Of a stretch of DNA of 32,000 nucleotides, positions 7,219 through 24,617 are shown piece after piece (position 1 is the stretch's first letter; each line of letters starts with the position of its first letter). The notes under the pieces were generated by a model. The model saw only the letters and a list, made by a program, of their open reading frames with translations, was not told the DNA's origin and ran no database searches. Source of the DNA: Thermosulfurimonas dismutans (lineage in GTDB: Bacteria > Desulfobacterota > Thermodesulfobacteria > Thermodesulfobacteriales > Thermodesulfobacteriaceae); the NCBI RefSeq assembly GCF_001652585.1, contig NZ_LWLG01000017.1, forward strand, positions 13,397-45,396, in the 5' to 3' direction. The translations under genes were made by a program, and so were the position numbers.

Positions 7219-7247
7219 TTGACAAGCAACTCCAGCAATGTTAATAA
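7219..7247 (+). promoter_or_regulatory. Candidate sigma70-type promoter of the TonB-dependent receptor gene
   Basis: TTGACA (7219-7224), a 17 nt spacer, then TAATAA (7242-7247), about 45 nt upstream of the ATG at 7292. Confidence 0.45.
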
Positions 7248-7254
7248 TTCGTGC

Positions 7255-7273
7255 TACGAATATAAAATTCGTA
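7255..7273 (+). promoter_or_regulatory. Perfect 7-5-7 inverted repeat TACGAAT-ATAAA-ATTCGTA (candidate operator or 5'-UTR hairpin)
   Basis: The repeat is read directly from the sequence. It lies between the candidate -10 and the AAGGAGG RBS of the receptor gene. Confidence 0.4.
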
Positions 7274-7291
7274 ATACTAAGGAGGTCGGAG

Positions 7292-9220: not shown

Positions 9221-9246
9221 ATCCTAATCGGTAAAGGAGGAAAAAC

Positions 9247-9717: not shown

Positions 9718-10514
9718 AGATAAAGAAAAAATTTGTGATTGGTATTTTGACAAGTCTTTTTCTTCTGCTGGCCTTTATTCCTAAAACCTATGCTCACTTT
9801 CTGTGGTTAAACGTTGATGATTATACCCCTAAAAAAGGACAAGAGGTCCGCATCACCCTCGGTTGGGGACACAAGTTCCCCGAAACACCAACCCCTCCTA
9901 GAGAGGAGATGGTAAAGAAACTCTCCCTCTTTTTGATAGATCCTGATGGTCAAAAAATTCCTCTTAATATTCCCGTAAAAGACGGAAAACCACAGCCCGT
10001 TAGAGTAAAGGTAACCAAAAACGGCATTTATTTAGCCGTAGCTATCGCCAAACACTTTGTTTCCAAAACCACGGAAGGTTATTTCTATAAATCCAGAGAC
10101 GAGTTAAAAGACAAAGAAATTATTTATTCCAAGTGGTCTGAAACTACTGCGATCGCTATTATAAGTGTGGGTAAATCTAAAAAATTTGATACTCCTAACA
10201 ATCTAGACTCTAGCTTTTACATCCTTCCTCTGGTTAATCCCTCGGTTTTAAAAGAGGGAGAAACCTTTCAGGTAAAGGCAATATTTTACGGTAAACCCTA
10301 TCGCACCTGGGTGTATGCTACTTATGCGGGATTCAGTAAATTTAAAGATACCTATGCTTGGGCAACCAAAACAGACAAGAGGGGCATAGCTAATATTAAA
10401 ATTTTGAAGAGTGGGGTAAACTGGTTGCTTAAAAGCGAGGTTGAGAAACACTATCCAGATCCAAAGAAAGCCGATATAGCAAGTTACAAATGTTCCGTAA
10501 CATTTGGATTCTAG
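9714..10514 (+). CDS. Secreted DUF4198/CbiK(COG5266)-like periplasmic protein (putative Ni/Co uptake component)
   Basis: The start overlaps the upstream stop (ATGA). A signal peptide ends ...PKTYA|HFLWLN, followed by LGWGHKFPE. It is 266 aa, and the C-terminal half is beta-rich. Confidence 0.5.
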   Translation: MKIKKKFVIGILTSLFLLLAFIPKTYAHFLWLNVDDYTPKKGQEVRITLGWGHKFPETPTPPREEMVKKLSLFLIDPDGQKIPLNIPVKDGKPQPVRVKVTKNGIYLAVAIAKHFVSKTTEGYFYKSRDELKDKEIIYSKWSETTAIAIISVGKSKKFDTPNNLDSSFYILPLVNPSVLKEGETFQVKAIFYGKPYRTWVYATYAGFSKFKDTYAWATKTDKRGIANIKILKSGVNWLLKSEVEKHYPDPKKADIASYKCSVTFGF

Positions 10515-11005
10515 TTTTGATTTTATTTTTATTTCTAGCTTCGCGAGAAGTCCTTGCTCACGGAGTTGAAGGAGAAATTGAATATCTCCGTGGGGCGGTT
10601 GTTGTTACCGCCTGGTATGACACCGGAGAACCGATGAGTTATGCAAAAGTAGAGGTTTATGCCCCTGATAGTAATATCAAATTTCAATCTGGAAGAACAG
10701 ACCGGAATGGTCGTATCGCTTTCGTACCCGATGTACCCGGAAAGTGGCGAGTAGTGATCTCGGATGAACTCGGACACAAGCTCGATCTTTCCGCAAATAT
10801 AACAAGTATTTCTCCGGAGAAACCGGTAGAAAATACTCAAATCACCGAAGCTAGAAAAAGCACATTATTATCGCGCAAAATAAGTATTATTATAGGACTT
10901 TTGTTAATATTCGGCCTCTTCGGCTGGATAAAGGAAATTAAGCAATTTCGTCAAAAGGTTTACGGCGGAGACGATGAGGTAGGGCCAGGCGTTCGGCCAC
11001 CCTGA
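10490..11005 (+). CDS. Secreted beta-sandwich (carboxypeptidase-regulatory/transthyretin-like) protein with a C-terminal TM anchor
   Basis: A signal peptide ends ...EVLA|HGVEGE, followed by GRTDRNGRIAFVPDVPGKWRVV, a typical CarboxypepD_reg-like strand pattern. The hydrophobic anchor is IIIGLLLIFGLFGW. The last 68 nt overlap the convergent chlI-like gene. Confidence 0.4.
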   Translation: MFRNIWILVLILFLFLASREVLAHGVEGEIEYLRGAVVVTAWYDTGEPMSYAKVEVYAPDSNIKFQSGRTDRNGRIAFVPDVPGKWRVVISDELGHKLDLSANITSISPEKPVENTQITEARKSTLLSRKISIIIGLLLIFGLFGWIKEIKQFRQKVYGGDDEVGPGVRPP

Positions 11006-11924
11006 GATCCTCCTCGGTGACCTCGGTCCTCCCGGAAAAGGCCGCGTGAGCCCTAGCCGCACGGGCCATGGTAAGATCGGCTCGGTGCCCGTCAACCCCC
11101 AGCGTTATGGTCTTTTTGGCGATGGCATAAAGCATCTCCTCTGGAAGCCTTACCTCCGGAAGCCTCTCCTTGGCTTCCACGATACGGGCGACCAAGGCTT
11201 CGGTTTCACTCTGAAATTTTTCTTTGAACCCTTCAGGATCCCGCGCAAATTCCTCCCAGCGCTCCATGATGAGCACCCTGGCCTTTGGGTCTTTTAAGCC
11301 CTCGACCGTCACGCAGAGACCGAAACGATCAAGGAGTTGGGGACGAAGTTCTCCCTCTTCTGGATTCATGGTACCCACCAGGACGAAACGGGCGGCGTGA
11401 GAGAAACTTACCCCTTCCCTTTCCACGTAATTCATCCCCATAGCCGCCACATCGAGGAGGGTATCCACCAAGTGATCCGGTAAAAGATTTACCTCGTCCA
11501 CATAGAGAAAACCCCGGTGGGCGGCGGCCAGAAGGCCGGGCTCAAAGCGTCTCTCTCCCCGGGTTAGGGCCGCTTCGAGGTCAATGCTTCCCACCAGGCG
11601 ATCCTCGGTGGCTGAGAGCGGAAGCTCCACCACCCGCACCTTTCGCCTCGTGCGGGGAAGCCGGCCTTCCTTCTCAAGGCGCTCTTTACAGAAAGGACAG
11701 AGGCTTTCGGGTGAGTCCGGATCGCAGGAAAAAGGACAACCCTCCACTACCTCTATCTCCGGAAGGATGTCCGCTAGGGCCCGTACCACCGTAGATTTAC
11801 CGGTGCCCTTTTCACCCCGAATGAGGACTCCCCCGATTCCGGGGTCAATCACGTTAAGAAGCAGAGCTAACTTCATGTCCTCCTGACCTACGATGGCGGT
11901 AAAAGGAAAAAGGTATCTCTTCAT
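10938..11924 (-). CDS. chlI: Class I chelatase AAA+ ATPase subunit (ChlI/BchI-type)
   Basis: The sequence contains FPFTAIVGQEDMKLALLLNVIDPGIGGVLIRGEKGTGKST (Walker A), FLYVDEVNLL (Walker B) and GTMNPEEGELRPQLLDRF. There is a Cys-rich insert, GCPFSCDPDSPESLCPFC. The start overlaps the upstream stop by ATGA. Confidence 0.9.
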   Translation of the reverse strand: MKRYLFPFTAIVGQEDMKLALLLNVIDPGIGGVLIRGEKGTGKSTVVRALADILPEIEVVEGCPFSCDPDSPESLCPFCKERLEKEGRLPRTRRKVRVVELPLSATEDRLVGSIDLEAALTRGERRFEPGLLAAAHRGFLYVDEVNLLPDHLVDTLLDVAAMGMNYVEREGVSFSHAARFVLVGTMNPEEGELRPQLLDRFGLCVTVEGLKDPKARVLIMERWEEFARDPEGFKEKFQSETEALVARIVEAKERLPEVRLPEEMLYAIAKKTITLGVDGHRADLTMARAARAHAAFSGRTEVTEEDLRVAERLALPHRLRRKPFDEIA

Positions 11925-13780
11925 GGTTCACCTCTCGCAATTTCGTAAAGTCTATCAGCCCGGAGGGCTTCAGGGGTAAAGTAACGGGCAGAAAGGAGTT
12001 CGGCGAGCCTCCGGGCCATTTCAAGTCTTAAGCCCCCTGTTTCGGTATCTACCACCACGAATTCGGTCTGCGGAAAGTTCGCCGAAAGTCTTCCGGCCAA
12101 GACCTCGATTTCCTCCCGCGGTGGTTTCCCGGTAAGGCTAACATTACCTCGGCCGTCAGTGATTAGAATGACGGTAGTGAGGAGCCGAGAATCTTTTCGA
12201 CGTATCTCTTCAAGCAATCGGTAAAGTTCGCTAAGGGCGGCGGGAAGCGGGGTTGAGCCTCCTACCGCAAGCTCCGAAAGGACCCTTGCGGCCCGATCCA
12301 CAGAATTGGTAGGCGGGAGAACAATCCGGGCCTTATCCCCGCGGAACACCATAAGGGCCACTCGGTCCCGCCTCTGATAGGCCGAAAGGAGGAGACTCAT
12401 AATAGCACCCTTGGTTTCCCTCATGCGGGCCTCGGCGGCCATGGAACCCGAGCCGTCCACACAGAAGACCACGAGGCGAGAGCTTCTCACCAGCTTGAGC
12501 TTGGCCCGCAGATCCTCCTTACGGATTACAAACCTTCCGGGACCACCACCGCGGATCTTCTGTTTTAAGGCCGCCGAAAGAAAGGTGGGGATAAGGGCTA
12601 TCTCCCCCTCCCCCTTATAGGGAACAGCCCTTACGAAATATCCCCTTCCGGTAAGAGAAAATCCCTTAGATCTCTTACCGAAAATCTTGACCTGCTGTGG
12701 CCGTTCGCGATGACCGCTAAACTCCCTCACCCGGAAGATCTCTCCCACGGAAAAGACTTTGTCCTCGCCCTCTTCGGGCCTTACCTCCTCGGGTTCGGCA
12801 AATTTTGTATCGGTACGACTGTTCTCTCCTCTATCTTGCCCCTCCGTCGGCGTTTCGTGAGAACGACCTCTAGGGGCCTCTTTTTCCCTCGGGGAGGAAT
12901 TCTCTTCAGGAGGCTTGCGGTCTTCTTTGTTTTCTTCCCCGGGCTTACTTTCGGGCTGAGGTTTAGGTCTGCCCCGTGATCTCTCCCGTCTCCGGTGGGC
13001 GAGAACCAGTTCGGCCACGGACTCCACATCCTCGGGGGTGGCCTCGGAGCGGCCCTTTAGGGCCGCGTGGGCCCGAACGGCCTCTAAAAGAAAAATTTCC
13101 GCCCGGTGACCAGCCGCGGCGGCCTCAAGCGCAAGCCGTGCTATGAGGGCACGAAGGTAGCCAGAAATCCTGACCCCGGGAAGCAAGCTTCTGGCCTTTA
13201 AGATTTCCTCACGGAGCCCCCTTTCCTCCTCCGCAAAGGTCTCCTCAAAACCCTCGGGATCCATCTCCCAGAAGAGGCGTCGTCTCAGGATCTCAACCCG
13301 CAGGCTCGGGTCCCTTTCGGCAGAGACCTCCACATAGAGACCGAAACGGTCAAGGAGTTGCGGTGAAAGGGGACCCTCCTCGGGATTCATGGAACCGATC
13401 AAGAGGAATCGCCCGGACTCCGAGGCGGAAAGCAAGAGGGAAACGATGGATGGAGGCAAAAGATTTATCTCGTCCACATAAAGCACTCCGCCCTCGGCCT
13501 GAGCGAAAAGGCCAGGGACAAAGACCCTTCGACCGTGCTTTAAGGCCTCCTCCAGGCAAAGATGACCGGTCAATCGTTCCTCCGTTACTGAAAGGGGAAG
13601 ATTCACAAAAGGGCCTTCGATGAGGCGAGCTAAGGCCCGGCCTGCGGTGGACTTGCCCGTGCCCTTTTCTCCGGAAAGGAGCACCCCCGAAAGCCGCGGG
13701 TTTATCGCGCAGAGCATAAGGGCAAGCTTCATTTCTTCCTGCCCTACAATGGCCGAAAGGGGATAGAGCCTCTTGGTCAT
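11921..13780 (-). CDS. chlD: Class I chelatase bridging subunit (ChlD/BchD-type: AAA-like N-domain, acidic/Pro-rich linker, C-terminal vWA domain)
   Basis: The N-terminal region is AAA-like (LSGEKGTGKST, LYVDEINLL, GSMNPEEGPLSPQLLDRF). A charged linker follows (RRRERSRGRPKPQPESKPGEENKEDRKPPEE...). The vWA MIDAS motif is VFCVDGSGSM. The preferred start at 13780 is an ATGA overlap with the cobN stop, preceded by GGAGAG 8 nt upstream. The longest ORF begins at 13831. Confidence 0.88.
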   Translation of the reverse strand: MTKRLYPLSAIVGQEEMKLALMLCAINPRLSGVLLSGEKGTGKSTAGRALARLIEGPFVNLPLSVTEERLTGHLCLEEALKHGRRVFVPGLFAQAEGGVLYVDEINLLPPSIVSLLLSASESGRFLLIGSMNPEEGPLSPQLLDRFGLYVEVSAERDPSLRVEILRRRLFWEMDPEGFEETFAEEERGLREEILKARSLLPGVRISGYLRALIARLALEAAAAGHRAEIFLLEAVRAHAALKGRSEATPEDVESVAELVLAHRRRERSRGRPKPQPESKPGEENKEDRKPPEENSSPREKEAPRGRSHETPTEGQDRGENSRTDTKFAEPEEVRPEEGEDKVFSVGEIFRVREFSGHRERPQQVKIFGKRSKGFSLTGRGYFVRAVPYKGEGEIALIPTFLSAALKQKIRGGGPGRFVIRKEDLRAKLKLVRSSRLVVFCVDGSGSMAAEARMRETKGAIMSLLLSAYQRRDRVALMVFRGDKARIVLPPTNSVDRAARVLSELAVGGSTPLPAALSELYRLLEEIRRKDSRLLTTVILITDGRGNVSLTGKPPREEIEVLAGRLSANFPQTEFVVVDTETGGLRLEMARRLAELLSARYFTPEALRADRLYEIARGEP

Positions 13781-16700
13781 TTCCATATCTCTCCGATTTC
13801 CTTGCGGAGATCCTTCATTCTCGCCTGCCATTCAGCTACCTCATCTACGGAATACATATCCACGGCCCCGCCCTGAAAACCGCCTTCGGTCTCTCCTATC
13901 GCATCCTCGAGTCGTCCTTCGAGCTCAAGGTAAGCGTCTCTCAATTTTTCAAGTAAACCAGCCTCCGGCCTCCAGAGACCTCTCTTCTCGGCCTCAAGTA
14001 GCCTTCGGGCGATTTCTTCCAGGGCGTAAGGGTTGTGTTTCATAAAGAAATCCCGATTTTCTTTGTCTACGACAAATTTACGGGTAATTTCGTCGAAGAT
14101 CCAGTCGTCAACCTCGCCGGTGGTGGCCTGCCAGCCGAATAGGCGTCCGATGCGTTTGGAGATCTCCGCCGCTCCCTTGTAGCCGTGTTGCTTCATGCCT
14201 TCTATCCAGCGCGGATTCAAGAGTTTAGCCCTTGCCACCCGCCGGATTTCATCGGCAAGGTCACGAACCGCAACCGCCGCCCTCTCCCTGGTATCACCGT
14301 AGTAGGCCTTTACCTTTTTCCCGGAGAGTTCCCTTGCGGCCACCGTAAGTCCGCCGTGGGTACCGAAGTAGCAGCAGCAACCGAAAAGATCGTATTCATC
14401 GGTGAAGGAATTGTTGAAGGTCGCCTCTACCGTGCGCAGGCCTTCGGCAAATTCCCGGTGGGCCTTCTCTCCGAAGACGCCTTTTCCGTAGGCGTAGCCG
14501 TTCCAGTATAGGAAGACCTCGGCGAGATCCTTCTCAGTCTTCCAGGCCGAGGCGTAAACCGCAAGGTTCACCCCGGACTGGTAGGTACCCGGAGGAGAGG
14601 CGAAGATCCGAAAGGTGGCCCTGCGGAAGGCGTCCTTTTTGCCTCCCAACTTTTCAAGCCGTTCCAGGGTGTGCTTGCGCACAAAGTTCATCTCCAGGGG
14701 TTCCTCAAGCTCCGCCACCAGGCACACAGCCTCGTCCACCAGCTCCAGACATCGAGAAAAATTGTCCCGGGTGATTCCGGAAACCCTTACCGTGACATCT
14801 ATGCGGGGGCGACCGAGTTCGTGAAGCGGGATGACCTCAAGCCCTTTTACCCGGCCGTTGGGGAGCCATACCGGTCTTACCCCCAGTAAGTAAAGTATCT
14901 GGCTCATGACCTCCCCTTCGCTCCACATGATGTCCGTGCACATCCAGTAAAAAGCTACGTTTTCGGGGAGCCGCCCCTCGTCTTTCCGGAATTTCTCAAG
15001 GAGGGCCTCGGCCAGCTTGACGCCCACGGCGTAGGCCGCTTTCGTGGGAACCCTTTCAGGATCAAGGGAGTAAAAATTTCTTCCGGTAGGAAGAATGTCA
15101 TCCCGGCCGCGGGTTATGAGCCCGGAGGGCCCGGGAGGGATGTAGCCTCCGGAAATCCCGTAAAGTAAAGCCCCCATCTCGTCCGAGGCCTCTATGCGGC
15201 TTCTAAGATCCTTTATCCGGGAGGCCAGCTTTTCCAGGTGTTCCATAGGAACCCTCTCTACAGCCTCCTTTCCGCAGAGACGGACGAGAACTTCTCTGGC
15301 CTTTTCCCCCTCAAGGACGCCGCGGACGAATTTTCCGGATAGTTTCTCCACCCGCTCAAGGAGCCGACCTTTGGTGGGATCATTCAGGAGATCCTCCAGC
15401 CGAAAACCCAGAGCCCGGGCCATTACCCGCCGAAGATCCGAAGGCTCCCCAGAATCGTAGCGCAGAACGGCTCGTATAAATTCGGCCAGTTTTTCGCCTC
15501 GGGGAATCTCTCCAAAGATGTGCATACCTTTGGGCACCTGGGTACTTCGCAGGCGGGTTAGGGCCTCGTGAATGCGGCGGATAAACTCCTCCGGCTCAGT
15601 CTCCTTCGAGGGTTTCACCTCTCGGTCAAGACCGGTTTTCCGAACAAGGTCAACCAGACGGTGAAGTATCTCGTGGGCCCGTGCTGGACTTCCGGCAGCC
15701 GCCTTTTCGTATTCCTCAAGGAGTCGATCCAGCTCAAGATAACCCTCATAAAGCTCTCCGGCCTCAAGTACCGTCTGCAGGTGATCTACCAGAACGGCAT
15801 AACTTCGCCGTTTGGCGATAGTGCCCTCCGGGGGGTTATCAGAATTATAAATGTAAAGATGGGGCCGTTCGTGAATGGAGAGATCCGGAAAACAGGCCGC
15901 AGAGAGCCCTACCCCCTTTCCCGGAAGAAATTCCAGATTGCCGTGGGTGCCCACATGGATGATCACATCCGCCCCGAAGACCCTCTCGAGCCAGCGGTAG
16001 GTGGCCACATACTGGTGGGGAGGGGGAACCTCGGGGTCGTGGAGGATCTTGCATACCTTCCCATCACAACGCGGCCCGGCACAGCCCCGCTTGGGTTGAA
16101 CGCAGACCACCGCGTTTCCGAAACGAAGCCCGGTAACCACGATCTTTCCATCATGGACCATGGCCGCGGGTACACCGTTCTTCTCCTCCCCCGGAGGGTC
16201 TCCCCAAGCCTCTCTCATCCGCAGGCGAACTCCTTCCGGGAATTCCTCCCACCAGGGGAGGTATTCCTCAAGCGGGACCATAGCCAGGGCGCCTCCCTTT
16301 TTCACAATTTCCTCCACCGTGGTCCACCGGAACTCCGAAATAGCCTTCCTTTTGAGGATCAGATCAATCAATTCCTTTCCGTTTTCGGGCTCTCCCTCAA
16401 CACGATAGCCCTCCAGTTTGAGACGTTTCAGGATCCGGGCCACACTCTCAAGGGTATCCAAATGGGCCCCGGACCCCACCGTGGCCTCCACCGAGGCACA
16501 GGGGTTATTGTGCAACACGAAGACCACCCGGCGTTCCGCAGGAGGTTTGCGACGAAGTTCAATCCAGGCCTTGACCCTCTTTACCAGCCTCTGAACCCTC
16601 TCCCTCACCGGGACTCGACGTTCCAAAACGGCCCCGGTCAAGGGATCCTCTTCCCTTTTCATAGCACCAATGAAAAGGGGCTCTATGACTCCCTCAAATT

Positions 16701-17634
16701 CCGGAAGGGCTACCGACCAGGCGACCTCTGCTGAAAGTCCCTGGGGATCCTCTTCCCACTCGCTCACCGTGCGATAGTAAGCCACTACCGGCTGAAATAC
16801 CGGAACTCCAAGCCGGCGAAGGACCTCCACCCCGGAGGTAGAAACCGAAGGATCCGAAAGGTCCTTCTCCCGGGTACTTCCCAGGAAGAAAAGGATAAGT
16901 TTGATCAGGGCCTCTATTCGGGGAAGCCCATCGGCCAGCAGAAATTTTCTTATCGCCTCCCCCGGACCCTCGCTTCCGAGACTCTCGTCCTTTACGCTAT
17001 AGCTGAACACCGGTACAACCCCAAGCCCCTGAGCCTCAAATTCCTCTATCAAAGCCCTCTCCACCTCCATTTCCCCGTTTACCCAGTTGTGACGAGAGTA
17101 AAGGATCCCTACAAGGGGAGTTTTCGGGGAGGGCCGGTACCACGCGAGGTATTCCCCGGTGTCGGTAAAGACTTTAGGGGCCCGAGGGTGATATATACCG
17201 GCCATAGGAAGGGGCTCGGGGTCCCGATGGGAAACATCGAGGCCCCCGAGCCCGGAGGCTAGATATAGGAGGAGGTTGGCAAAGTTTTCTTCCCCTCCAT
17301 AGATAACATAGCGCAGGGCCTTCTGGACCACCTCCGGAGAGACATTAGAAAGTGTTAAATAAGTGGGATCGTATCCCAGGGATACCAGGGGACGGGTTTT
17401 CCCCAGCTCGGCAAGGCGAGGAAGCATCTCCTCCCAGAAAGAATCCCCGGAGCGGTAAAGGAGGATAATATCCGCCTGGGCAAGCTCGAGAAGGGCCTCC
17501 TCCCTCTTTTCGGGATGGGTCTCGAGGGTGCGGGAAGAGAAAATCCTGACCTCAAGGCCCAGATCCCTGAGTCTTGCAGCGGCTCTTACAAGGACGGGAA
17601 CATAACTAGCCCATAAAATGGCCCCGATTTTCAT
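13777..17634 (-). CDS. cobN: CobN/ChlH-family large chelatase subunit (about 1285 aa)
   Basis: Length and motifs are typical of CobN/Mg-chelatase H (HVGTHGNLEFLPGK, DNPPEG, YGDT..., PRWIEGMKQHGYKGAAEI). The start at 17634 (MKIGAILW) follows a GGAGGTG RBS. The ORF-track start at 17727 would add 31 unlikely residues. Confidence 0.92.
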   Translation of the reverse strand: MKIGAILWASYVPVLVRAAARLRDLGLEVRIFSSRTLETHPEKREEALLELAQADIILLYRSGDSFWEEMLPRLAELGKTRPLVSLGYDPTYLTLSNVSPEVVQKALRYVIYGGEENFANLLLYLASGLGGLDVSHRDPEPLPMAGIYHPRAPKVFTDTGEYLAWYRPSPKTPLVGILYSRHNWVNGEMEVERALIEEFEAQGLGVVPVFSYSVKDESLGSEGPGEAIRKFLLADGLPRIEALIKLILFFLGSTREKDLSDPSVSTSGVEVLRRLGVPVFQPVVAYYRTVSEWEEDPQGLSAEVAWSVALPEFEGVIEPLFIGAMKREEDPLTGAVLERRVPVRERVQRLVKRVKAWIELRRKPPAERRVVFVLHNNPCASVEATVGSGAHLDTLESVARILKRLKLEGYRVEGEPENGKELIDLILKRKAISEFRWTTVEEIVKKGGALAMVPLEEYLPWWEEFPEGVRLRMREAWGDPPGEEKNGVPAAMVHDGKIVVTGLRFGNAVVCVQPKRGCAGPRCDGKVCKILHDPEVPPPHQYVATYRWLERVFGADVIIHVGTHGNLEFLPGKGVGLSAACFPDLSIHERPHLYIYNSDNPPEGTIAKRRSYAVLVDHLQTVLEAGELYEGYLELDRLLEEYEKAAAGSPARAHEILHRLVDLVRKTGLDREVKPSKETEPEEFIRRIHEALTRLRSTQVPKGMHIFGEIPRGEKLAEFIRAVLRYDSGEPSDLRRVMARALGFRLEDLLNDPTKGRLLERVEKLSGKFVRGVLEGEKAREVLVRLCGKEAVERVPMEHLEKLASRIKDLRSRIEASDEMGALLYGISGGYIPPGPSGLITRGRDDILPTGRNFYSLDPERVPTKAAYAVGVKLAEALLEKFRKDEGRLPENVAFYWMCTDIMWSEGEVMSQILYLLGVRPVWLPNGRVKGLEVIPLHELGRPRIDVTVRVSGITRDNFSRCLELVDEAVCLVAELEEPLEMNFVRKHTLERLEKLGGKKDAFRRATFRIFASPPGTYQSGVNLAVYASAWKTEKDLAEVFLYWNGYAYGKGVFGEKAHREFAEGLRTVEATFNNSFTDEYDLFGCCCYFGTHGGLTVAARELSGKKVKAYYGDTRERAAVAVRDLADEIRRVARAKLLNPRWIEGMKQHGYKGAAEISKRIGRLFGWQATTGEVDDWIFDEITRKFVVDKENRDFFMKHNPYALEEIARRLLEAEKRGLWRPEAGLLEKLRDAYLELEGRLEDAIGETEGGFQGGAVDMYSVDEVAEWQARMKDLRKEIGEIWK

Positions 17635-18421
17635 GGTTTTCACCTCCGAGAGGATTTCCCGGGAAGGCTCCAGTGAGGGATACCAAGGGATAGCCACGAA
17701 AATAGAGGATCTCAAGGGGAATCTCATAGAGTTCTTCTAAAAGTTCCTGAGCCCTAGGATGTTTCCGGGGGTTCATCTCCGCAAGTATCCGTCCCTTTTT
17801 GATAAGGACTACCCGATCGGCAAAACCGAAGGCCAGATTTGGGTCGTGAAGGGTGGCTACCACTGTAAGCCCCCTTTCTCCGGCGAGTCTGTGGACGGTG
17901 GTGAGGACTTCGATCTGGTGTTTCAGGTCCAGATTGGCGGTAGGTTCGTCAAGAAGAAAGATCGGAGCCTCCTGAAGTAGGGCCCTCGCGAAAAGCACCA
18001 GCTGGCGCTCACCGCCGGAAAGATCCGTAAGGCGACGGCGGACAAGGGCCTCAAGTCCTAGACTTCGGAGCACTTCCCGGGCCTTGATCTCATCCCTTTT
18101 TCCAGGACGAGAGAGAAATCCGAGATGAGGAGTGCGTCCCAGCAGGACAAATTCTAGCACGGTATAGGGAAAGACCGGATGATAGGACTGGGGAACATAG
18201 GCCAGGAGACGGGCCCTCTCTTTGTAGGTAAGGTGTTTCAGGGGCCGCCCGCAAACGAGAACCTCGCCCCTCGTCGGGGTATAGAGCCCCAGAAGGCATT
18301 TCAACAAAGTAGTTTTCCCGGCTCCATTAGGTCCGAGAAGGACCACAAATTCCCCCTTGTGCAGGGTCAAATTCACTTCCTGAAGAATCTGGGCGAAGGA
18401 GAGGTCACGGACCTCAAGCAT
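17606..18421 (-). CDS. ABC importer ATPase (FepC/BtuD/FecE type)
   Basis: The sequence carries Walker A GPNGAGKTT, the signature LSGGERQ and Walker B IFLLDEPT. It overlaps the permease gene upstream and cobN downstream. Confidence 0.9.
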   Translation of the reverse strand: MLEVRDLSFAQILQEVNLTLHKGEFVVLLGPNGAGKTTLLKCLLGLYTPTRGEVLVCGRPLKHLTYKERARLLAYVPQSYHPVFPYTVLEFVLLGRTPHLGFLSRPGKRDEIKAREVLRSLGLEALVRRRLTDLSGGERQLVLFARALLQEAPIFLLDEPTANLDLKHQIEVLTTVHRLAGERGLTVVATLHDPNLAFGFADRVVLIKKGRILAEMNPRKHPRAQELLEELYEIPLEILYFRGYPLVSLTGAFPGNPLGGENHENRGHFMG

Positions 18422-19448
18422 ACTCCCAGCCCCCGGTCCGTTGTTGTTTGAGGAGATAGATAAAAAAAGGAATACCGGTGAGAGAGGTAATGATGCCTAC
18501 CGGGAGATCAAAGGCGGTAAGCGTACGGGCCAGAGTGTCAGAAACCACCAAGAGGCCTGCTCCGGTACACATGGAAAGGGGAATCAGCCGTCGATGGTCC
18601 GGTCCTACCGAGAGCCGAACCAGGTGGGGCACCATCAATCCCACCCAGCCCACAATACCGGCTGCGGCCACACCGGCCCCCACCACTAGGGCCGCAAGGC
18701 CCATAACGGCAGCCCTTTCCTTCTCCACCGAGACTCCCAGGCTTCTGGCCTCGTCCTCCGGAAGGGAAAGGAGATTTAGCCGGAATCTCAGCAGATATAG
18801 CCCTGCAAGGCCTAGGGCCACGGGTGGAAAGGTTTGCTTGACGACCTCCCAGGTGCTCAAAGCGAAGCTTCCCATCATCCAGGTCACGATTTCGGCCATG
18901 CGGTGCGGATCCACCATGAATTTTATGAGGGAGACCAGGGCCATGAGCCCGGCGGAGACGATAATCCCGGAGAGAATTAGACTTATACGGGAGACCTCTC
19001 CAGATAGCCGGGCTACCCCATAGGTCAGAAAAGCGGCCAGATAAGCGAAAAGAAAGGCCGCCAGCGATACCGGTACCCGCGGCAACCAAGCCACGGCCAC
19101 CGCACACCCCAGCGCTCCCCCGGCGGAAAGACCTAAGAGATAAGGATCTACCAACGGATTACGAAAGACGGCTTGAAGGGCCGCCCCGGAGGAGGCCAGA
19201 GCCGCCCCTACCAGGGCCGCGAGCAGGACCCTAGGGGTTCGGATCTCCCAAAAAATATTTAAAATTCCGGGACTTATTCCGGAATCTCCCTCCCAGAGTT
19301 TTACCCAGAGGACCTTGAGAGCCAAACCGGGTTTAAAACCCGCCGGTCCCAGGGAAAGAGAGAGATAAATCGCCAGGATACTTGCCGTTACAATGAAGGC
19401 CTCCTTCCGCCAAAGGCCTTTTGGGGAAGGGAGGATTTTAGATGGCAT
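18414..19448 (-). CDS. ABC importer permease (FecCD/BtuC family)
   Basis: This 344 aa polytopic membrane protein has a sequence pattern typical of FecCD (PRVLLAALVGAALASSGAALQAVFRNPLVDPYLLGLSAGGALG ... GIPFFIYLL). Confidence 0.88.
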   Translation of the reverse strand: MPSKILPSPKGLWRKEAFIVTASILAIYLSLSLGPAGFKPGLALKVLWVKLWEGDSGISPGILNIFWEIRTPRVLLAALVGAALASSGAALQAVFRNPLVDPYLLGLSAGGALGCAVAVAWLPRVPVSLAAFLFAYLAAFLTYGVARLSGEVSRISLILSGIIVSAGLMALVSLIKFMVDPHRMAEIVTWMMGSFALSTWEVVKQTFPPVALGLAGLYLLRFRLNLLSLPEDEARSLGVSVEKERAAVMGLAALVVGAGVAAAGIVGWVGLMVPHLVRLSVGPDHRRLIPLSMCTGAGLLVVSDTLARTLTAFDLPVGIITSLTGIPFFIYLLKQQRTGGWEYA

Positions 19449-20406
19449 TCCTGTTGAACCTCTCTACTAGGGTCTTGAAAGAAATCCCGCGAAACCTTTC
19501 GGGATAGATCTTCATGGCCACCCACAGGGTTATCAGAGCCACCCTAGGCGACCAGGTGGACCAGGCAGGGGCCTTGTAGACGGCTCCGTGTTTTACGGCC
19601 GCAACCGCGGCCAGCCTCCGGTCCTGGAGGATGTCCTCCGCTCCGTAGGAGGCGTTTCCCCAAATGAAAATGACCTCCGGGTCCCAAAGGACAATCCTTT
19701 CGGGAGAGACCCTGGGATAGGGATGATCTAGGGCCTCGGCACAATTTTTCCCGCCGGCAAGGCGCAAAATGTCCGCCACCACCCCTCTTCCGCCGGCCAC
19801 CTGGCAGTGACAATGGTCCCCCCAGAGCCAGAGGACCCGTTTCTTTTCGTTTTCCCTGAGGTCCGAAAGACGTTTATCGATAAGTGAGAAGACCTCCTCC
19901 ATGGCCCGGTTCACTCGTAGGAGACGTTCCTCTTTGCCAAAGAGTTCGGCCAGAAGCCTCATGGTAGAGCGCAGATCCTTCAGGCTCTCCGGAGAGATGG
20001 CGATAATCGCCGTTTGATTTCTCTGACCGAACTCCTCAAGGACCTTAAGGGTTTCCGGGCGATAGGTCCAGGTAACGATGAGATCCGGGGAAAAGAGGGC
20101 CAGGGCCTCCAGATTCGCCTGGGTAGCCGTTCCCACCGAAGGAATCTCCTTTAGCCTTTCTGCGCCGACTTCTTTAAGGAGATCACTATATCGTTTGGCC
20201 CAGAGGCTAATCCCTACCGTCTGGTCCCAGAGATCGAGATAGGGAATGAGCTCGTAGCCAATGAGGAAAACCGCCCTCCTTACCGGAACCCGCACCTCAA
20301 CCTTGCGACCGGAAGCATCTCTGACCACTAGGGTGCGCGGGGCAGCCAGAGCAACCTCAAGGCCCAACAAAATAATTATGAAAAGAAGCGCGAGCCTCAC
20401 CTTCAT
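19438..20406 (-). CDS. Periplasmic substrate-binding protein (BtuF/FepB class, for cobalamin, haem or siderophore-type ligands)
   Basis: A signal peptide (MKVRLALLFIIILLGLEVALA) is followed by PDLIV and EVIFIW motifs typical of cluster A/class III SBPs. The gene sits in an operon with FecCD/FepC-type partners. Confidence 0.8.
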   Translation of the reverse strand: MKVRLALLFIIILLGLEVALAAPRTLVVRDASGRKVEVRVPVRRAVFLIGYELIPYLDLWDQTVGISLWAKRYSDLLKEVGAERLKEIPSVGTATQANLEALALFSPDLIVTWTYRPETLKVLEEFGQRNQTAIIAISPESLKDLRSTMRLLAELFGKEERLLRVNRAMEEVFSLIDKRLSDLRENEKKRVLWLWGDHCHCQVAGGRGVVADILRLAGGKNCAEALDHPYPRVSPERIVLWDPEVIFIWGNASYGAEDILQDRRLAAVAAVKHGAVYKAPAWSTWSPRVALITLWVAMKIYPERFRGISFKTLVERFNRNAI

Positions 20407-21209
20407 GACAGCATGTCCTTCTCAAGGATACGGCTCTGAATACCTTGGAGGATGTGGACCAACTCCTCCCGGATTTCTCCGGACAGAGGAAGCCTCTCGC
20501 CCCTAAGAGAGGCTGCGGTGAACTCCGGTCTCACCCAGAACCTTCCTAAAACCGGAAGATGCCTCTTCCCGATCTCCTCTTCCACAATGGCCTCGGCCTC
20601 GGGGGTAAGCCGGTTCAAAACCACTCCCATAAAACGAGCTCCGGAGCCGGTCGCAAGGTCCCTGATCCTTTCGGCGAGCATCACCGACTCTAAGGAGGGT
20701 TCAACTACTGCAAGCACCCCATCTACCGCGGTCTCAAGCCCCCTTCCGAAGTGTTCCACCCCGGCCTCGGTATCCACCAGCACGATCTCTCCGGAAGGAG
20801 TTTCAAGCCGCTTCATGAACTCCCTGGCCACTACTCCCATCGGGCAAGCGCAACCCTCTCGGGCCTCAACGACTTTCCCTACCACTACCAGCAGGCAGTT
20901 ACCCCTCTGCCGCCGAAAGTCCTTCGGGATATCCTCAGGAAAGATCCTCTCCTTTTCAAAAAGACTCACCTCCTCTTTTCCTTCCCGGATTTTCCGCCTC
21001 AGCTTTTCTCGGACGGAATCCTTGCCTCCCAGAAGATCCATTAGGGTGCGGGGAGGACTCTCAAAACCGAGCAGCCGGTGAAGCCCGGGATTGGATTCAT
21101 CCGCATCCACTACCAGCACCCCCCGGTTTTGTTCTGCTAAAAACTCGGCCAATAAGGCGGTAAGAGTGCTCTTACCGCTTCCTCCCTTACCACAAATTAC
21201 AATCTTCAT
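20403..21209 (-). CDS. CooC/MinD/ParA-family P-loop ATPase with a CxC metal motif (CooC-like metallochaperone)
   Basis: It has a deviant Walker A (ICGKGGSGKST), a VVDADESNPG motif, and REGCACPMG, a C-x-C like the Ni-binding motif of CooC. Confidence 0.7.
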   Translation of the reverse strand: MKIVICGKGGSGKSTLTALLAEFLAEQNRGVLVVDADESNPGLHRLLGFESPPRTLMDLLGGKDSVREKLRRKIREGKEEVSLFEKERIFPEDIPKDFRRQRGNCLLVVVGKVVEAREGCACPMGVVAREFMKRLETPSGEIVLVDTEAGVEHFGRGLETAVDGVLAVVEPSLESVMLAERIRDLATGSGARFMGVVLNRLTPEAEAIVEEEIGKRHLPVLGRFWVRPEFTAASLRGERLPLSGEIREELVHILQGIQSRILEKDMLS

Positions 21210-21660
21210 AATTACCCCCCTCCTTCCCCGAAATTCGGAAAAGTCTATAGGTTGGAGCCGAAAGTATTTCTTCTATCCAATTTTTAAAAAGAAGAAGGTA
21301 CTCCTCCTTTTCCTGAAGAGTTATGATCTGGCGCAAGATCTTACTCTCAAGGTCCCGTAATTTTTCGGGCGCTCGGACAAAGGCCCTTCTTGTCCGGAGG
21401 AAAAGAAGATTTTCCCCGCGAGCGTTGAGGAGACTGTAAACCTCTTCATCCATATCCTCGGAAAAGGCAGGAAATCCCATCAATTCCAGAGCCCTTGCGG
21501 CACAGCCCCGGTTATAGGCACACACGGAAAAATCCTCTAAGGACCTTTCCAGGATATAGGTCCTGAATACGAGACCCACCCTCCAGCCTATGGCCAGGTA
21601 AGGGCAGAGATGACCGTGTCTATGGACAATGGTTTTGAGTTCAAGATCTAAGAAAAGCAT
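21187..21660 (-). CDS. FmdE/FwdE-domain protein
   Basis: The N-terminal HRHGHLCPYLAIGWRVG matches the HGH-x-CP-x-x-x-x-G-x-R signature of FmdE-family domains. The product is 157 aa. Confidence 0.6.
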   Translation of the reverse strand: MLFLDLELKTIVHRHGHLCPYLAIGWRVGLVFRTYILERSLEDFSVCAYNRGCAARALELMGFPAFSEDMDEEVYSLLNARGENLLFLRTRRAFVRAPEKLRDLESKILRQIITLQEKEEYLLLFKNWIEEILSAPTYRLFRISGKEGGNYEDCNLW

Positions 21661-21678
21661 CCTTTTTTAATCCCTACC

Positions 21679-23871
21679 TCAGTATTCAAACTTCAACTCC
21701 GCAAACCAGGTCCTTCCCGGGGCCTGGTAGTAGTCGTAGTAATCCTCGTCAAAAACATTGTTGACAGAAAAAGAGAGGGTTGCTTTGTGCCAGGTAAGAC
21801 TCACCTTGACATCGGCCACGAAGTATTCCTCCGAAGTCCCGTAAACGCCTTCAGCCTTGTCGGAGTTGTCGTCGTAACGGAAGACCTTACCTACATAATG
21901 GCCAAAGATGGAGAACTTGAGCCCAGGTAGATTTCCGGGGAGGGGGGGGTTAGCCGAGAGCTCGAAATTCCAGATCCAGGGCGGAACGCCAACGAAACGT
22001 TTACCCTCGGATTCGGGTTTGGCCGGATTGTCCGTGATCTTGGTGTCGTTGCGGGTGTAGTTAACCTTAGCGGAAAGCCAGGAAAAGGGTTTGAGTTCAA
22101 GCTCGCCCTCAAATCCCAGGATCTCTCCTTCCCCGGAGTTGGTCCAGATGTATTCCTTGGTATCGGAATAATAGGCCCGGTAGATGAAGTCCTCCATCCA
22201 GGTACGGAAGAGAGAGGCGCTAAGACGCAGGCGCTTTCCGAACCACCACCTCTCTCCCCCTACCTCCACGGTCCAGGAGGTCTCGGGATCAAGATCGGGA
22301 TTTGAGCGGTAGGTGCGCCCGTACCAGCTCCAGGTGCGGTAGAGCTCATAAAGGTTGGGGGGACGGAAGGCCTTGCCGACCGAAAGTCTCAGGTTAGTGG
22401 AACCGTCTGGACGCCAGACCAGGGCCGCCTTCGGGGAGAAGGCCCCGTCGTCCCGATCGTCGTATCCTTCAACGGCCCCAACGTCACCGGCCTTACCGTC
22501 ATAGGTCCACCAGTGGTCATAGCGCAGCCCCAGGTAAAGGGAGAGATCCTCTCTTACGGTCCAGATGTCCTGCACGAAGAGCCCGAGCGCGCGGCTCTTT
22601 CCCCGAGAAAGATAAAGCTTTTCCTCCTCGGAGTCCTCATCCCGATAGAAAACCAGTTTATGACTCTCTACATTCGACCAATCCCTCCGCAGGGTAAGAC
22701 CGGCGGTAAGGAGGTGGCTTTCTCCTAAGGGAAGATTGCCCTTCACATCTAGATAATAGGTTTCACTATCGCTCTCGTTCTTTTCTCCGGAAGCGGTGTA
22801 GTAGTCCCCGCCTCGGTAGGGTTTTGTATAGTATCCGTCCCTCCTCAGAAAGCCAAAGTTGAATTCGGTTTCGAGTTTTCCGAAGACATCCCGATAGTTG
22901 AGGGAGACGATGCTCGTCTGATAGTCCCCGAGACCGGCATAGGAGATGAAGTCATAAGGAGAAACCGAGGCCGCAAGTCCTCCTGGAATACTCACCGTTC
23001 CGGAGAAGGCCGGCTTTCCGGCAGGATCGGTCAGATAGGTGTGAGGATGGCCGTAATCGTAGCGCTGCACCCCGTGCTGGAACCCGAGCCTTACTTCGCC
23101 CTCATCCCTTACATCAATCCCGATCTTCAGGTGATAGTTCCAGCGTTCACCCCGTTGATCTCCCTTGTCTCCCACCACCCAGCGCAATTTTTCTCCGGTG
23201 GGATCGGTGGTGGGGTAGCCCCCAATCAGGGTTCCGGTTCCGGTTTTAGGCGATTTCAATACCGGGACCGTGGGATACCCCTCCGTGCGGTCCTCTTCGT
23301 AGCCGGCGAGAAAGGCCAGACGCCCCACCCGGTCTCCCATGCTTATGCGCCAGCGGCGGGTTACATCCTCCCCCAGTCCGCCCGTGGCCGAAAAGGTAAA
23401 CTTTTCCGGAAGACGGGTAAGGATATTGATGACCCCTCCCATGGCGTTTCCGCCCCAGAGGGAGGAAAAGGGCCCCCGTACCACCTCCACCCTTTCCACT
23501 TCGTCCAGCGAAAGGGTAGCCCAACGGACGCTATTTGAATAGCCGTCGTTTACCGGAATACCGTCAAGCAGAACCAGAGTCCGCCCCTGGCGGGGCAGTC
23601 CCCGGAGCTCCACCGAGGCTATGGTATCCATGAGCCCTTTCCTGCGGTGCACGAAGACCCCGGCCTCGTGTTTGAGGGCCTCGTCCAGGGTCTGAAGATT
23701 CTTTTTTTCCATGTCCTTACGGGTGATCACGCTCACTGCAGCCGGGGCCTCGGAGACTGCCTGCGGCACCCTAGTGGCCGTGACCACCACTTCCGGGACT
23801 TCTTCCTCCTCGGCCCATGCCGAGCCCATGGCAACGAGAATCAAGATCAACAGTCCCAGTCTGGTTAGCAT
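21679..23871 (-). CDS. TonB-dependent outer-membrane receptor (first gene of the 13 kb operon)
   Basis: The start at 23871 (MLTRLGLLILILVAMGSAWA) follows a GGAGGGGGAG RBS. The plug domain reads VVVTATRVPQAVSEAPAAVSVITRKDMEKKNLQTLDEALKHEAGVFV, LDGIPVND and VRGPFSSLWGGNAMGGVINILT. The barrel ends in a terminal ...WFAELKFEY. Confidence 0.9.
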   Translation of the reverse strand: MLTRLGLLILILVAMGSAWAEEEEVPEVVVTATRVPQAVSEAPAAVSVITRKDMEKKNLQTLDEALKHEAGVFVHRRKGLMDTIASVELRGLPRQGRTLVLLDGIPVNDGYSNSVRWATLSLDEVERVEVVRGPFSSLWGGNAMGGVINILTRLPEKFTFSATGGLGEDVTRRWRISMGDRVGRLAFLAGYEEDRTEGYPTVPVLKSPKTGTGTLIGGYPTTDPTGEKLRWVVGDKGDQRGERWNYHLKIGIDVRDEGEVRLGFQHGVQRYDYGHPHTYLTDPAGKPAFSGTVSIPGGLAASVSPYDFISYAGLGDYQTSIVSLNYRDVFGKLETEFNFGFLRRDGYYTKPYRGGDYYTASGEKNESDSETYYLDVKGNLPLGESHLLTAGLTLRRDWSNVESHKLVFYRDEDSEEEKLYLSRGKSRALGLFVQDIWTVREDLSLYLGLRYDHWWTYDGKAGDVGAVEGYDDRDDGAFSPKAALVWRPDGSTNLRLSVGKAFRPPNLYELYRTWSWYGRTYRSNPDLDPETSWTVEVGGERWWFGKRLRLSASLFRTWMEDFIYRAYYSDTKEYIWTNSGEGEILGFEGELELKPFSWLSAKVNYTRNDTKITDNPAKPESEGKRFVGVPPWIWNFELSANPPLPGNLPGLKFSIFGHYVGKVFRYDDNSDKAEGVYGTSEEYFVADVKVSLTWHKATLSFSVNNVFDEDYYDYYQAPGRTWFAELKFEY

Positions 23872-23987
23872 CTCCCCCTCCTTGATTTTTTGTATCACTT
23901 TTTTAAAATTTGTAACACAAAGAGTAACGAGACCAAAAATGGATGTCAAGGGTAAGATAAGTAAACGTAAAGACTTGGAGAGGTCCT

Positions 23988-24617
23988 ATGAGTCTATGGT
24001 GGTTGATAGAGAAAGGCGGGGTTCTGATATGGCCCCTTTTGGGGTGTTCAGTACTCGGGCTTGCGGTCTTTTTTGAAAGACTCGTCCGGCTTTTCCGGGC
24101 GGCCTCGAGGGATCCAGGACTTGTAGAAAGAGTAGCTGAGAAAGTACTTACCGGGGATCTTGAAGGGGCCAGACGGGAGTCCGCCCGAGAAGGAGGAGCC
24201 GTGGGCCGTATGCTCTATGAGGGACTCTCCATGGGGCTTACAGATGTGGAGACCGTGGAAAGGCTTCTTGCCTCGGCGGTGGAAAGAGAACTCGCTGGCC
24301 TTTCCCGGTATTTCGGACTCTTGGCCCTTATAGGAAACCTGGCCCCGCTTCTGGGGCTCCTCGGTACCGTAATCGGCATGATCAAGGCCTTTCAAACCGT
24401 AGAGGCCTTGGGGGAACGGGTCACGCCCTCACACCTTGCCGGAGGTATTTGGGAGGCCATGCTTACTACGGCAGCGGGCCTCACGGTGGCTATCCCGGTA
24501 ATGATAGGACTCTCTTACCTTGAAGGCCGGCTCTCCCGCATAGAAAACGAGATGGAGGAGGCCGCCACCCTTCTATTAAAAGCCCTTAAAGAGAGGAGCC
24601 GTCATGCTTCGCATTAA
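23988..24617 (+). CDS. exbB: MotA/TolQ/ExbB-family proton channel
   Basis: The product has 3 TM helices and the sequence LALIGNLAPLLGLLGTVIGMIKAF...GIWEAMLTTAAGLTVAIP typical of ExbB/TolQ. A GGAGAGG RBS precedes it. Confidence 0.88.
   Translation: MSLWWLIEKGGVLIWPLLGCSVLGLAVFFERLVRLFRAASRDPGLVERVAEKVLTGDLEGARRESAREGGAVGRMLYEGLSMGLTDVETVERLLASAVERELAGLSRYFGLLALIGNLAPLLGLLGTVIGMIKAFQTVEALGERVTPSHLAGGIWEAMLTTAAGLTVAIPVMIGLSYLEGRLSRIENEMEEAATLLLKALKERSRHASH

Follow-up and report, generated by a model that had tools for sequence, protein, structure and literature searches.

A tightly packed Thermosulfurimonas operon that joins TonB-dependent uptake to a thiolate-type CobN-ChlID chelatase: a possible NikR-controlled nickel-acquisition system

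Described relatives and organization of the locus

Gene clusters that combine a CobN-like protein outside B12 regulation with a FecCD/BtuFCD-type importer and, in Gram-negative bacteria, with a TonB-dependent outer-membrane receptor (TBDR) have been described under the name 'BtuS' and were predicted to serve metalloporphyrin salvage (Rodionov et al., 2003, as cited by Rocha et al., PMC6460266); in annotation the name stands for a 'CobN-like chelatase BtuS for metalloporphyrine salvage' (PMC10846266). Here we describe a nine-gene operon with this combination, encoded on the minus strand of a 32,000-nucleotide (nt) stretch of Thermosulfurimonas dismutans DNA (contig NZ_LWLG01000017.1; the whole stretch is called the window below). 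The gene module as such is already known and the salvage idea is not new, but the 'BtuS' prediction concerns metalloporphyrins in general and is without experimental support for the clade of the window CobN. We tentatively propose that the operon is best explained as a nickel-acquisition operon repressed by NikR; that it responds to nickel is probable. In the literature surveyed we found neither NikR-type operators on a bacterial module of this kind, nor its NiuB-like substrate-binding protein (SBP), nor its CooC and FmdE partners, nor a separate CC(C) active-site class, and these elements appear to be new.

The BtuS/HmuS proteins studied in Bacteroides belong to a different clade and are periplasmic, with membrane anchors. 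HmuS (9D26) carries N- and C-terminal anchors, a Met-rich insertion and the motif LSLDHxxEFMGG (His-1209, domain V), has its haem site at Met-79/His-254, and acts in the periplasm in an NADH-dependent, ATP-independent manner (PMC12583661). It shares with the window CobN the superfamily, the six-domain fold family, the H(F/V)G(T/A)HG motif and a TBDR in a metal-acquisition locus, and it sets a precedent for a reverse, metal-removing reaction. In contrast, the window CobN has no anchors, no Met-rich insertion and no LSLDH motif, the homologous domain V segment that forms its active-site motif reading DLFGCCCYFGTHGG, and it is accompanied by ChlI and ChlD.

CobNST (7C6O, 9UK9) and ChlHID (4ZHJ) resemble the window system in being composed of a large subunit, an AAA+ motor and a VWA adaptor, with full-length similarities of 535-587 bits. 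They differ from it in the active-site triple, which is CCC in the window protein and SDD or VSH/xDH in theirs, in the Cys-rich insertion of the window protein, and in gene context, as cob and bch neighbours are missing from the window. Its partners are of the ChlI/ChlD type and not the CobS/CobT of CobNST, and no cob gene was found in the window. Compared with ChlH/BchH, the window CobN has a Cys at the histidine position of the triple; genes for photosynthesis are absent from the window, and the clade belongs to strict anaerobes that, like the organism group of the window, are not phototrophs.

On the nickel side, the closest described system is that of Helicobacter pylori, in which NiuBDE takes up nickel as Ni(II)-(L-His)2 and carries cobalt as well, downstream of the TonB-dependent receptor FrpB4 and under NikR control (PMC5140060). 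The TonB-dependent step, the class III SBP (NiuB/CeuE), the FecCD permease (NiuD), the ATPase (NiuE) and NikR control are the features in common with the window; unlike the genes of the window, the nickel genes of Helicobacter do not lie together, and neither a chelatase nor CooC or FmdE accompanies them.

Methanogens provide the physiological parallel. In Methanothermobacter marburgensis, the values recorded for CobN1 (MTBMA_c06860, D9PVN3, 143 kDa) increased from about 7x10^6 to 2-2.7x10^9 at 250-50 nM nickel, an approximately 300-fold induction shared with NikR1, and decreased under iron limitation, whereas CobN2 (164 kDa) and CbiX did not respond (PMC12350162). Another cobaltochelatase-subunit-like protein, MTBMA_c09440, was several-fold up at low nickel, and the nickel-limitation-induced 'Transporter' MTBMA_c10530 adjoins the ChlD/ChlI-like genes MTBMA_c10550-10570 (PMC12350162, PMC3087415). 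Kaster et al. (2011) speculated that the CobN/ChlID-like proteins of methanogens could be nickel chelatases (PMC3087415), and outside Mg-chelatase, the aerobic cobaltochelatase and the recently solved HmuS, the functions of such proteins have been described as unclear (PMC12583661). M. marburgensis is, however, an archaeal strict anaerobe with CbiX and no TBDR, and its CobN1 is not encoded in an operon like that of the window.

The genes of the operon, in the order of transcription, and the divergent gene set that shares its control region are the following.

21679-23871, minus strand: TBDR with Plug and barrel domains, 88% identical to its orthologue in Thermosulfurimonas sp. F29
21187-21660, minus strand: single-domain FmdE-like protein with a His2Cys2 metal site (PF02663, 41 bits)
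20403-21209, minus strand: CooC-like (CooC/MinD-type) P-loop ATPase, candidate nickel metallochaperone
19438-20406, minus strand: periplasmic SBP, NiuB/CeuE-like (Peripla_BP_2)
18414-19448, minus strand: FecCD-family (type II) ATP-binding cassette (ABC) importer permease (PF01032, 285 bits)
17606-18421, minus strand: ABC importer ATPase (PF00005, ABC_tran)
13777-17634, minus strand: soluble 145-kDa CobN-family large chelatase subunit, putative thiolate ('CCC') class (PF02514, 1303 bits)
11921-13780, minus strand: ChlD-type subunit with AAA+ module, linker and VWA/MIDAS domain
10938-11924, minus strand: ChlI-type AAA+ motor subunit (TIGR02030, 458 bits, cut-off 467), absent from the F29 locus
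23988-25868, plus strand: divergent exbB-exbD-tonB energizing set (Pfam MotA_ExbB, ExbD, TonB_C)

An open reading frame (ORF) check recovered all nine minus-strand ORFs at 10938-23871, at the coordinates given beforehand, and Pfam and NCBIfam bore out the gene order of the preliminary description. That account had nine genes following each other without gaps; with its start codons, an 18-nt spacer separates the TBDR and fmdE genes and seven overlaps follow (23, 4, 11, 8, 29, 4 and 4 nt, the last two between cobN and chlD and between chlD and chlI). Its view of a single, tightly packed operon, in which a class I chelatase and its AAA+ partners are coupled to import by both a TonB-dependent and an ABC route, was supported. 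A Shine-Dalgarno-like purine-rich stretch lies 5' of most of the nine genes. For the TBDR, the most plausible start is ATG 23871, which has a strong Shine-Dalgarno sequence and is followed by a signal peptide. Overlaps of this kind are ordinary architecture and no statistical anomaly; the significant part is the recurrence of the gene combination. It was assessed in 80 related loci (denoted below by L and a number), which are genome regions encoding CobN relatives at 52-66% identity, scored with the window proteins. The genes found beside CobN were those for the FecCD permease in 47 loci, ChlI in 46, the SBP in 38, ChlD in 33 and the TBDR in 27, often with the order kept. The carriers include Desulfobacterota, Nitrospirota, Fibrobacter, Thermodesulfobacterium, many Firmicutes and Methanosarcinales.

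The CobN-family protein and its active site

No signal peptide or transmembrane segment was detected in the window CobN, the hydropathy of which reaches at most 1.48 over 19 residues (Kyte-Doolittle), and its Met content does not exceed 3 residues per 60-residue window (1.6% overall). Against solved structures it scored 587 bits with the Mycobacterium CobN, 574 with Synechocystis ChlH, 535 with a second CobN and 368 with HmuS. It matches NF004646 (product name 'cobaltochelatase subunit CobN') with 1853.9 bits for a cut-off of 1468, and it is practically tied between the cobaltochelatase model TIGR02257 (830.4, cut-off 822.05) and the BchH model TIGR02025 (823.6, cut-off 829).

In domain V, residues C1086-C1087-C1088 align with Ser-Asp-Asp of 7C6O and 9UK9 and with Val-Ser-His of ChlH; in aerobic CobN proteins the acidic xDD triple forms part of the motif DxxDSDDY[YF]. 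The ChlH histidine of this triple is reportedly an essential active-site residue, according to work of Adams et al. in 2020. In HmuS, the motif that corresponds to the CCC triple contains a cation-binding histidine (PMC12583661). The clade is further marked by a Cys-rich insertion, C511-x6-C518-x4-C523-x4-C528, which reads RGCAGPRCDGKVC in the window CobN and is not present in the proteins of the CobN or ChlH structures. C379, C518/C523/C528, H560/H564 and the CC pair 1086-1087 were invariant in a 19-sequence alignment, and the same residues were invariant in all representatives at least 47% identical to the window CobN, which fits the NF004646, MJ1441-like clade.

The distribution of the triple was then tabulated from a MAFFT alignment of 129 full-length representatives of the superfamily, an exhaustive search having returned 6,536 representative clusters. 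CC(C/G/A) was found in every representative at least 47% identical to the window CobN. In the group at 34-45% identity the triple is variable and H564 is often lost, while the Cys insertion is kept. The triple xDD marks a separate, CobN-like group at 30-38% identity and xDH the ChlH/BchH-like group. As judged from these alignments, the clade would form a distinct active-site class, CC(C) as opposed to xDD (cobalt) and xDH (magnesium). The partner subunits have the motifs of an ATP-dependent motor: ChlD contains Walker A GEKGTGKS, Walker B VLYVDE and the MIDAS sequence DGSGS, and the Walker motifs of ChlI are intact. The window CobN thus has the appearance of an active class I enzyme that is driven by ATP and has a putative thiolate-type metal site.

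These properties bear on the function implied by automatic annotation, an ordinary cobaltochelatase with corrinoid or cobalt uptake for B12 metabolism. Both NF004646 and TIGR02257 pass their cut-offs under the cobaltochelatase name, and NiuBDE also carries cobalt (PMC5140060). However, CCC replaces the SDD of the solved CobN proteins and the CobN and BchH models are matched nearly equally; these near-equal scores, which hold for the structures as well, the different triple and the lack of cob neighbours set the protein apart from the bona fide cobaltochelatases, which is in line with the preliminary description. Members of the clade are found in strict anaerobes with an early-cobalt pathway, which lack the CobN substrate (M. 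marburgensis has CbiX; PMC3087415), and the literature calls the functions of such CobN proteins unclear (PMC12583661). Control by a cobalamin riboswitch, or by another riboswitch, was considered and rejected: the leader of the operon matched no Rfam family, no cobalamin riboswitch was found anywhere in the window at E<=1, in agreement with the leader without one described previously, and none heads the module in 20 related loci. We consider the B12 reading very improbable.

Cobalamin riboswitches were observed just downstream of the CobN-ChlI module in four related loci (L042:15865-16052, L052:20400-21604, L049:12009-12987 and L067:15010-15194), an adjacency that speaks for a link with B12. 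There they front separate BtuB-like receptor/ABC units, and since they precede only these units, the nickel-linked module would often have B12 uptake genes as neighbours while being regulated separately from them.

NikR-type operators, uptake proteins and metal-binding partners

The control region of the operon consists of the 116 nt between the TBDR start codon (ATG 23871) and the divergent exbB (23988). The NikR signal of delta-proteobacteria is GTGTTAC-[N13/14]-GTAACAC (PMC545781), and two sites with at most two mismatches to this consensus were found in the 32-kb window, for 0.03 expected. One lies in the divergent leader and the other heads a neighbouring TBDR unit.

23892-23918, minus strand: NikR-type operator in the divergent leader, GTGTTAC-N13-GTGATAC, 2 mismatches to consensus
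23921-23949, minus strand: putative sigma-70-type promoter of the operon, predicted from sequence only, TTGACA (23949-23944), 17-nt spacer, TACTCT (23926-23921)
7251-7277, plus strand: second NikR-type operator, heading the neighbouring TBDR unit, GTGCTAC-N13-GTAATAC, 2 mismatches

The second promoter has its -35 TTGACA at 7219-7224 and its -10 TAATAA at 7242-7247, followed by the box, the Shine-Dalgarno sequence AAGGAGG and ATG 7292, and the two TBDR promoters have a common layout: TTGACA, 17-nt spacer, -10, 2-3 nt, box, AAGGAGG, ATG. The operator of the operon starts 2 nt past the -10 hexamer, a geometry that would suit a repressor blocking initiation. It is also overlapped by a plus-strand promoter-like site for exbB (23882-23909). 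The presence of predicted NikR-type operators at both TBDR promoters is a regulatory signal that the preliminary description missed.

Similar boxes precede module genes elsewhere. In Thermosulfurimonas sp. F29, the orthologous leader carries GTGTTACAAATTTTATGAAAATAACAC, with a single mismatch, 12 nt before the TBDR ATG. L003 and L005 have perfect sites at a distance of 22 nt before CobN, and L006 has one with a single mismatch before CobN; others lie immediately upstream of FmdE in L030 (Thermodesulfatator) and of the TBDR in L065, L017 and L007. Four sites were located at most 200 nt upstream of module genes for 0.58 expected, a number reached in none of 200 shuffles; for the related loci, significance is limited to this enrichment by position and to the perfect sites. 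The regulator itself is encoded near the module in some loci: in L017 (Nitrospirota), nikR (NikR_C, 117 bits) and hypA directly precede a cluster running from the TBDR through CobN and ChlI to exbBD-tonB, and nikR is found near the module in the Methanosarcina locus L062.

Two other metal regulators were considered and set aside. The best Fur-box matches have 6 mismatches of 19 and none lies within the leader. Zinc was weighed because the sites of CooC and FmdE also bind this metal, and a Pseudomonas CobN-like gene is regulated by Zur. The operator is unlike the Zur boxes published for delta-proteobacteria (PMC545781).

The best solved relative of the SBP is H. pylori CeuE/NiuB (4INO/4LS3), with 106.6 bits and 31% identity over 276 positions, near full length, compared with 34 bits for IsdE, 33 for a haem binder and 31 for BtuF. 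The importer had initially been likened to BtuFCD, with a bulky tetrapyrrole suggested as its ligand, a proposal that does not agree with an SBP so much closer to NiuB/CeuE than to BtuF or to haem binders. The other uptake components did not discriminate: haem-, corrinoid- and siderophore-type models of the importer ATPase all remained below their cut-offs, no curated model of TBDR specificity passed its own, and the similarity of the TBDR to PDB entries was limited to the plug domain.

Salvage of haem iron, in which receptor and importer would bring in haem and CobN-ChlID would remove the iron, has been suggested by the analogy with hmu. HmuS, itself a CobN-family protein, de-chelates haem (PMC12583661), the best sub-threshold NCBIfam subfamily of the TBDR is that of haem/haemoglobin receptors (203 bits, cut-off 317), feoAB lie 4.5 kb from the operon, and 'BtuS' proteins are up in Methanosarcina barkeri under conditions resembling iron limitation (PMC10846266). 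Yet every HmuS-specific feature that was tested fails in the window protein, which is predicted to be cytoplasmic, is paired with ChlI/ChlD and matches HmuS with 368 bits for about 580 with CobN/ChlH; the leader contains a NikR-type box and no Fur box, the SBP scores 33-34 bits with haem binders for 107 with NiuB, and CobN1 of M. marburgensis falls under iron limitation (PMC12350162). The hmu analogy was therefore not supported, and haem salvage appears the most improbable of the functions considered here.

The two remaining proteins of the operon keep the metal-site residues of their solved relatives. The CooC-like protein aligns over its full length with CooC1 (3KJE, 68.7 bits), the nickel-insertion ATPase of CO dehydrogenase, and keeps the deviant Walker A GKGGSGKS (residues 7-14) and a CxC motif, C120-A-C122, aligned with that of CooC1. 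In the FmdE-like protein, HGHLCP (15-20) and C53 provide H15, H17, C19 and C53, which align with His15/His17/Cys19/Cys55 of 2GLZ. In this single-domain FmdE, these residues hold a solvent-exposed metal with a Zn:Ni ratio of 2.6:1, and most members of the FmdE family neighbour metal-ion transporters (PMC2954224). Together, the operators and the CooC-like and FmdE-like metal sites point to nickel. The two proteins are probable acceptors or donors of the metal.

The second NikR-type operator precedes a companion receptor unit.

7292-11005, plus strand: companion unit made of a second TBDR (TBDR2; 7292-9220), two DUF4198 proteins (9247-9717 and 9714-10514) and a NikL-like protein (10490-11005)

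The match of the last protein to NF058648 is weak (51 bits, cut-off 100). That DUF4198 and NikL-like proteins are encoded next to the operon counts in favour of nickel. Its ORF is convergent to chlI, the 3' end of which it overlaps by 68 nt. The G+C content breaks at about 11000, from 37-45% in the companion unit to 55-58% in the operon. The unit stays linked to the operon in F29 despite rearrangement; it is divergent there, with 51-52% G+C and a TBDR2 that is 67% identical.

Related loci, direction of the reaction and significance

The closest relative of the window CobN is that of Thermosulfurimonas sp. F29 (94% identity), which places the window in a thermophilic member of the Thermodesulfobacteriota. 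The core genes are 82-94% identical, and fmdE and a separate chlI are missing from the F29 locus, where the operon (L081, 13804-16608) ends with chlD. The AAA+ module of this ChlD has intact Walker motifs, and the motor of F29 may be ChlD alone, or ChlD with a ChlI encoded elsewhere.

Two associations outside the window were observed. An exporter-type ABC-2 pair, a DrrA/NodI-like ATPase with a NodJ/DrrB-like permease, adjoins CobN in 41 of the 80 loci, usually immediately upstream (for example L017:4137-5707, L042:8458-9974 and L047:1496-3042); the window operon is without it. In the Firmicute loci L084 (Ammonifex degensii) and L085 (Thermoanaerobacter kivui), the genes downstream of CobN encode a short CobN-domain protein (385-446 residues), a MotA/ExbB-like protein, DUF2149, proteins of the ChlI-like and VWA types, DUF364 and several SBPs, of which some contain a Cu_amine_oxidN1 domain. 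These two organisms have no outer membrane, and the ExbB-type device is hmu-like.

A conserved leader hairpin precedes module genes in 25 related loci, which come from several phyla and do not include the window. It is composed of 5'-(G/A)(G/A)CCAYGAAGG, a variable inner hairpin and CUUCRUGG(C/U)(C/U), followed by a U-tract. Pairing in the outer stem amounts to 95.8%, three pairs show compensatory changes (22 cells for 6 expected, 0 of 500 shuffles), and Rfam 15 contains no match to the hairpin. A covariance model gave 46 strong gene-strand matches, 39 of which have a module gene at most 700 nt downstream: CobN in 13 cases, the TBDR in 11, ABC-2 in 5, ChlD in 4, FmdE in 3, the permease in 2 and the SBP in 1. 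Examples are the following.

L033:9910-9971, L027:9917-9972, L002:1950-2006 and L004:80-138: leader hairpin
L021, 479-528, 3149-3208, 6212-6261 and 6382-6441: leader hairpin

The loci with this hairpin and those with NikR boxes do not overlap, so that the two may be alternative controls of one regulon, and the CCAYGAAGG hairpin/terminator is a candidate new cis-regulatory RNA for it. A second leader hairpin, with the conserved loop CCGGCAAGAGUCC, compensatory stem changes and no Rfam match, was observed upstream of TBDR genes in five examples.

L042:~3170-3230, L049:~13160-13230, L067:~2380-2440, L016:~7100-7180 and L020:~7240-7300: second leader hairpin

The rest of the window has a different content. 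Positions 1-7196 form a low-G+C island (29-33%, compared with 55-58% in the operon), which looks like an integrated mobile element: it contains genes for a NYN-domain protein and three ORFs without a family match (117-3614, minus strand), a tyrosine integrase (3859-4962), a tRNA-Lys(UUU) (6091-6164, minus strand) and a DDE transposase (6240-7196). On the other side of the operon, a FeoA homologue (28460-28864) stands out by an unusual insertion rich in Gly, His, Cys and Arg, GGGEKRGGGKGLAYGHRHCHRHRHCQGRGRSRRGGEGKGCG, which lies before its FeoA domain. Genes for a multihaem cytochrome c (26341-27657) and a cytochrome b (27668-28267) come before this homologue, and feoB (29088-31238) comes after it.

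In the nickel-acquisition model, scarcity of nickel would cause NikR to leave the operator, which directly follows the -10 hexamer within the 116-nt leader, and the nine genes would then be expressed, probably with the divergent exbB-exbD-tonB, the second NikR-boxed receptor unit being induced in parallel. The TBDR would carry chelated nickel across the outer membrane, and the NiuBDE-like SBP, permease and ATPase would move it into the cytoplasm. There, the soluble CobN, with cysteine thiolates where cobalt and magnesium chelatases have Asp or His, would take the metal from its carrier ligand while being remodelled by the ChlI/ChlD AAA+ motor. From there the metal would be handed over for delivery to nickel enzymes, the CooC-like ATPase with its CxC site and the FmdE-like protein with its His2Cys2 site being the most likely recipients. 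We infer NikR binding at both sites, nickel as the transported metal and the action of CobN-ChlID on the imported complex from the evidence presented above.

The direction of the reaction is where this model meets its main competitor, a forward chelatase fed by its own transporter. The receptor and the NiuBDE-like importer would supply Ni2+ (or Co2+), free or loosely bound, and this metal would be inserted with ATP into an endogenous sirohydrochlorin-like tetrapyrrole when it is scarce. CobN-ChlID would serve as a high-affinity alternative to class II chelatases, and the metal would be donated by the CooC-like and FmdE-like proteins, a role that CobW has for CobNST. Every characterized relative that depends on ATP, through ChlID or CobST, is a forward chelatase, and genes for metal transporters are often grouped with that of the chelatase using the metal (PMC7689651). 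The SBP looks like one that binds a small and labile nickel complex, from which extraction would be unneeded. The proposal of Kaster et al. (2011) for methanogens (PMC3087415) and the induction of CobN1 at low nickel in an organism that makes F430 (PMC12350162) go in the same direction, and the ABC-2 pair near CobN could export the metallated product. On the other hand, no nickel tetrapyrrole is known in bacteria bearing the clade, such as Thermodesulfobacteriota and Firmicutes; insertion of nickel into F430 has already been assigned to the class II enzyme CfbA (PMC8179277); and repression of a biosynthetic enzyme by its substrate metal is sensible only as a scavenging device. The cobalt version, in addition, finds no B12 riboswitch and no cob context. 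We regard a forward chelatase as doubtful.

Extraction and hand-off of the metal are favoured by the nickel repression predicted for the chelatase genes themselves, with boxes directly before CobN in L003, L005 and L006, by the HmuS precedent for the reverse reaction and by the chaperone-like partners; the ABC-2 pair next to CobN could in this case expel the emptied ligand. The metal-extraction ('dechelatase') role advanced in the preliminary description remains plausible.

Several observations weigh against nickel acquisition with extraction of the metal. If the imported substrate is a labile complex of the Ni-histidine type, no ATP-driven extraction is needed, which favours the forward chelatase. 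We know of no CobN-family protein that acts on anything but tetrapyrroles. The SBP is just 31% identical to NiuB, and its next-best relatives include a molybdate binder; the CooC-like and FmdE-like sites also bind zinc, and both proteins are rare accessories of the module (CooC in 1 of 80 loci, FmdE in about 6 of 80). Both operators of the window carry 2 mismatches and no nikR gene lies within its 32 kb. Most loci of the module are without a NikR box, and consensus-like sites in the 80 loci total 13 for about 14 in shuffles, so that there is no global enrichment. Finally, CobN1 of M. marburgensis was likened to the window CobN by mass alone.

A bolder form of the nickel-acquisition model, which we think unlikely, would make nickel-specific, thiolate-type CobN-ChlID a fourth functional kind of class I chelatase, in its boldest version a nickel de-chelatase driven by ATP. 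Its substrate would be a nickel-carrying macrocycle brought in through the TBDR and the type II ABC importer, either an environmental nickel tetrapyrrole such as F430 or its breakdown products, or a tetrapyrrole 'nickelophore' made by the cell itself, and it would strip the nickel from this carrier. The emptied ligand would be recycled by the ABC-2 exporter that adjoins CobN in half of the related loci, and the leader RNA, which would replace NikR in other phyla, might sense the same signal.

CobN-family proteins with ChlI/ChlD are abundant in strict anaerobes and methanogens, and the operon offers a testable assignment for one large clade of them. If correct, nickel acquisition would account for the induction of CobN1 by nickel limitation in methanogens, would show how anaerobes in nickel-poor sulfidic habitats supply their hydrogenases and CO dehydrogenase, and would amend the widespread 'cobaltochelatase' annotation.

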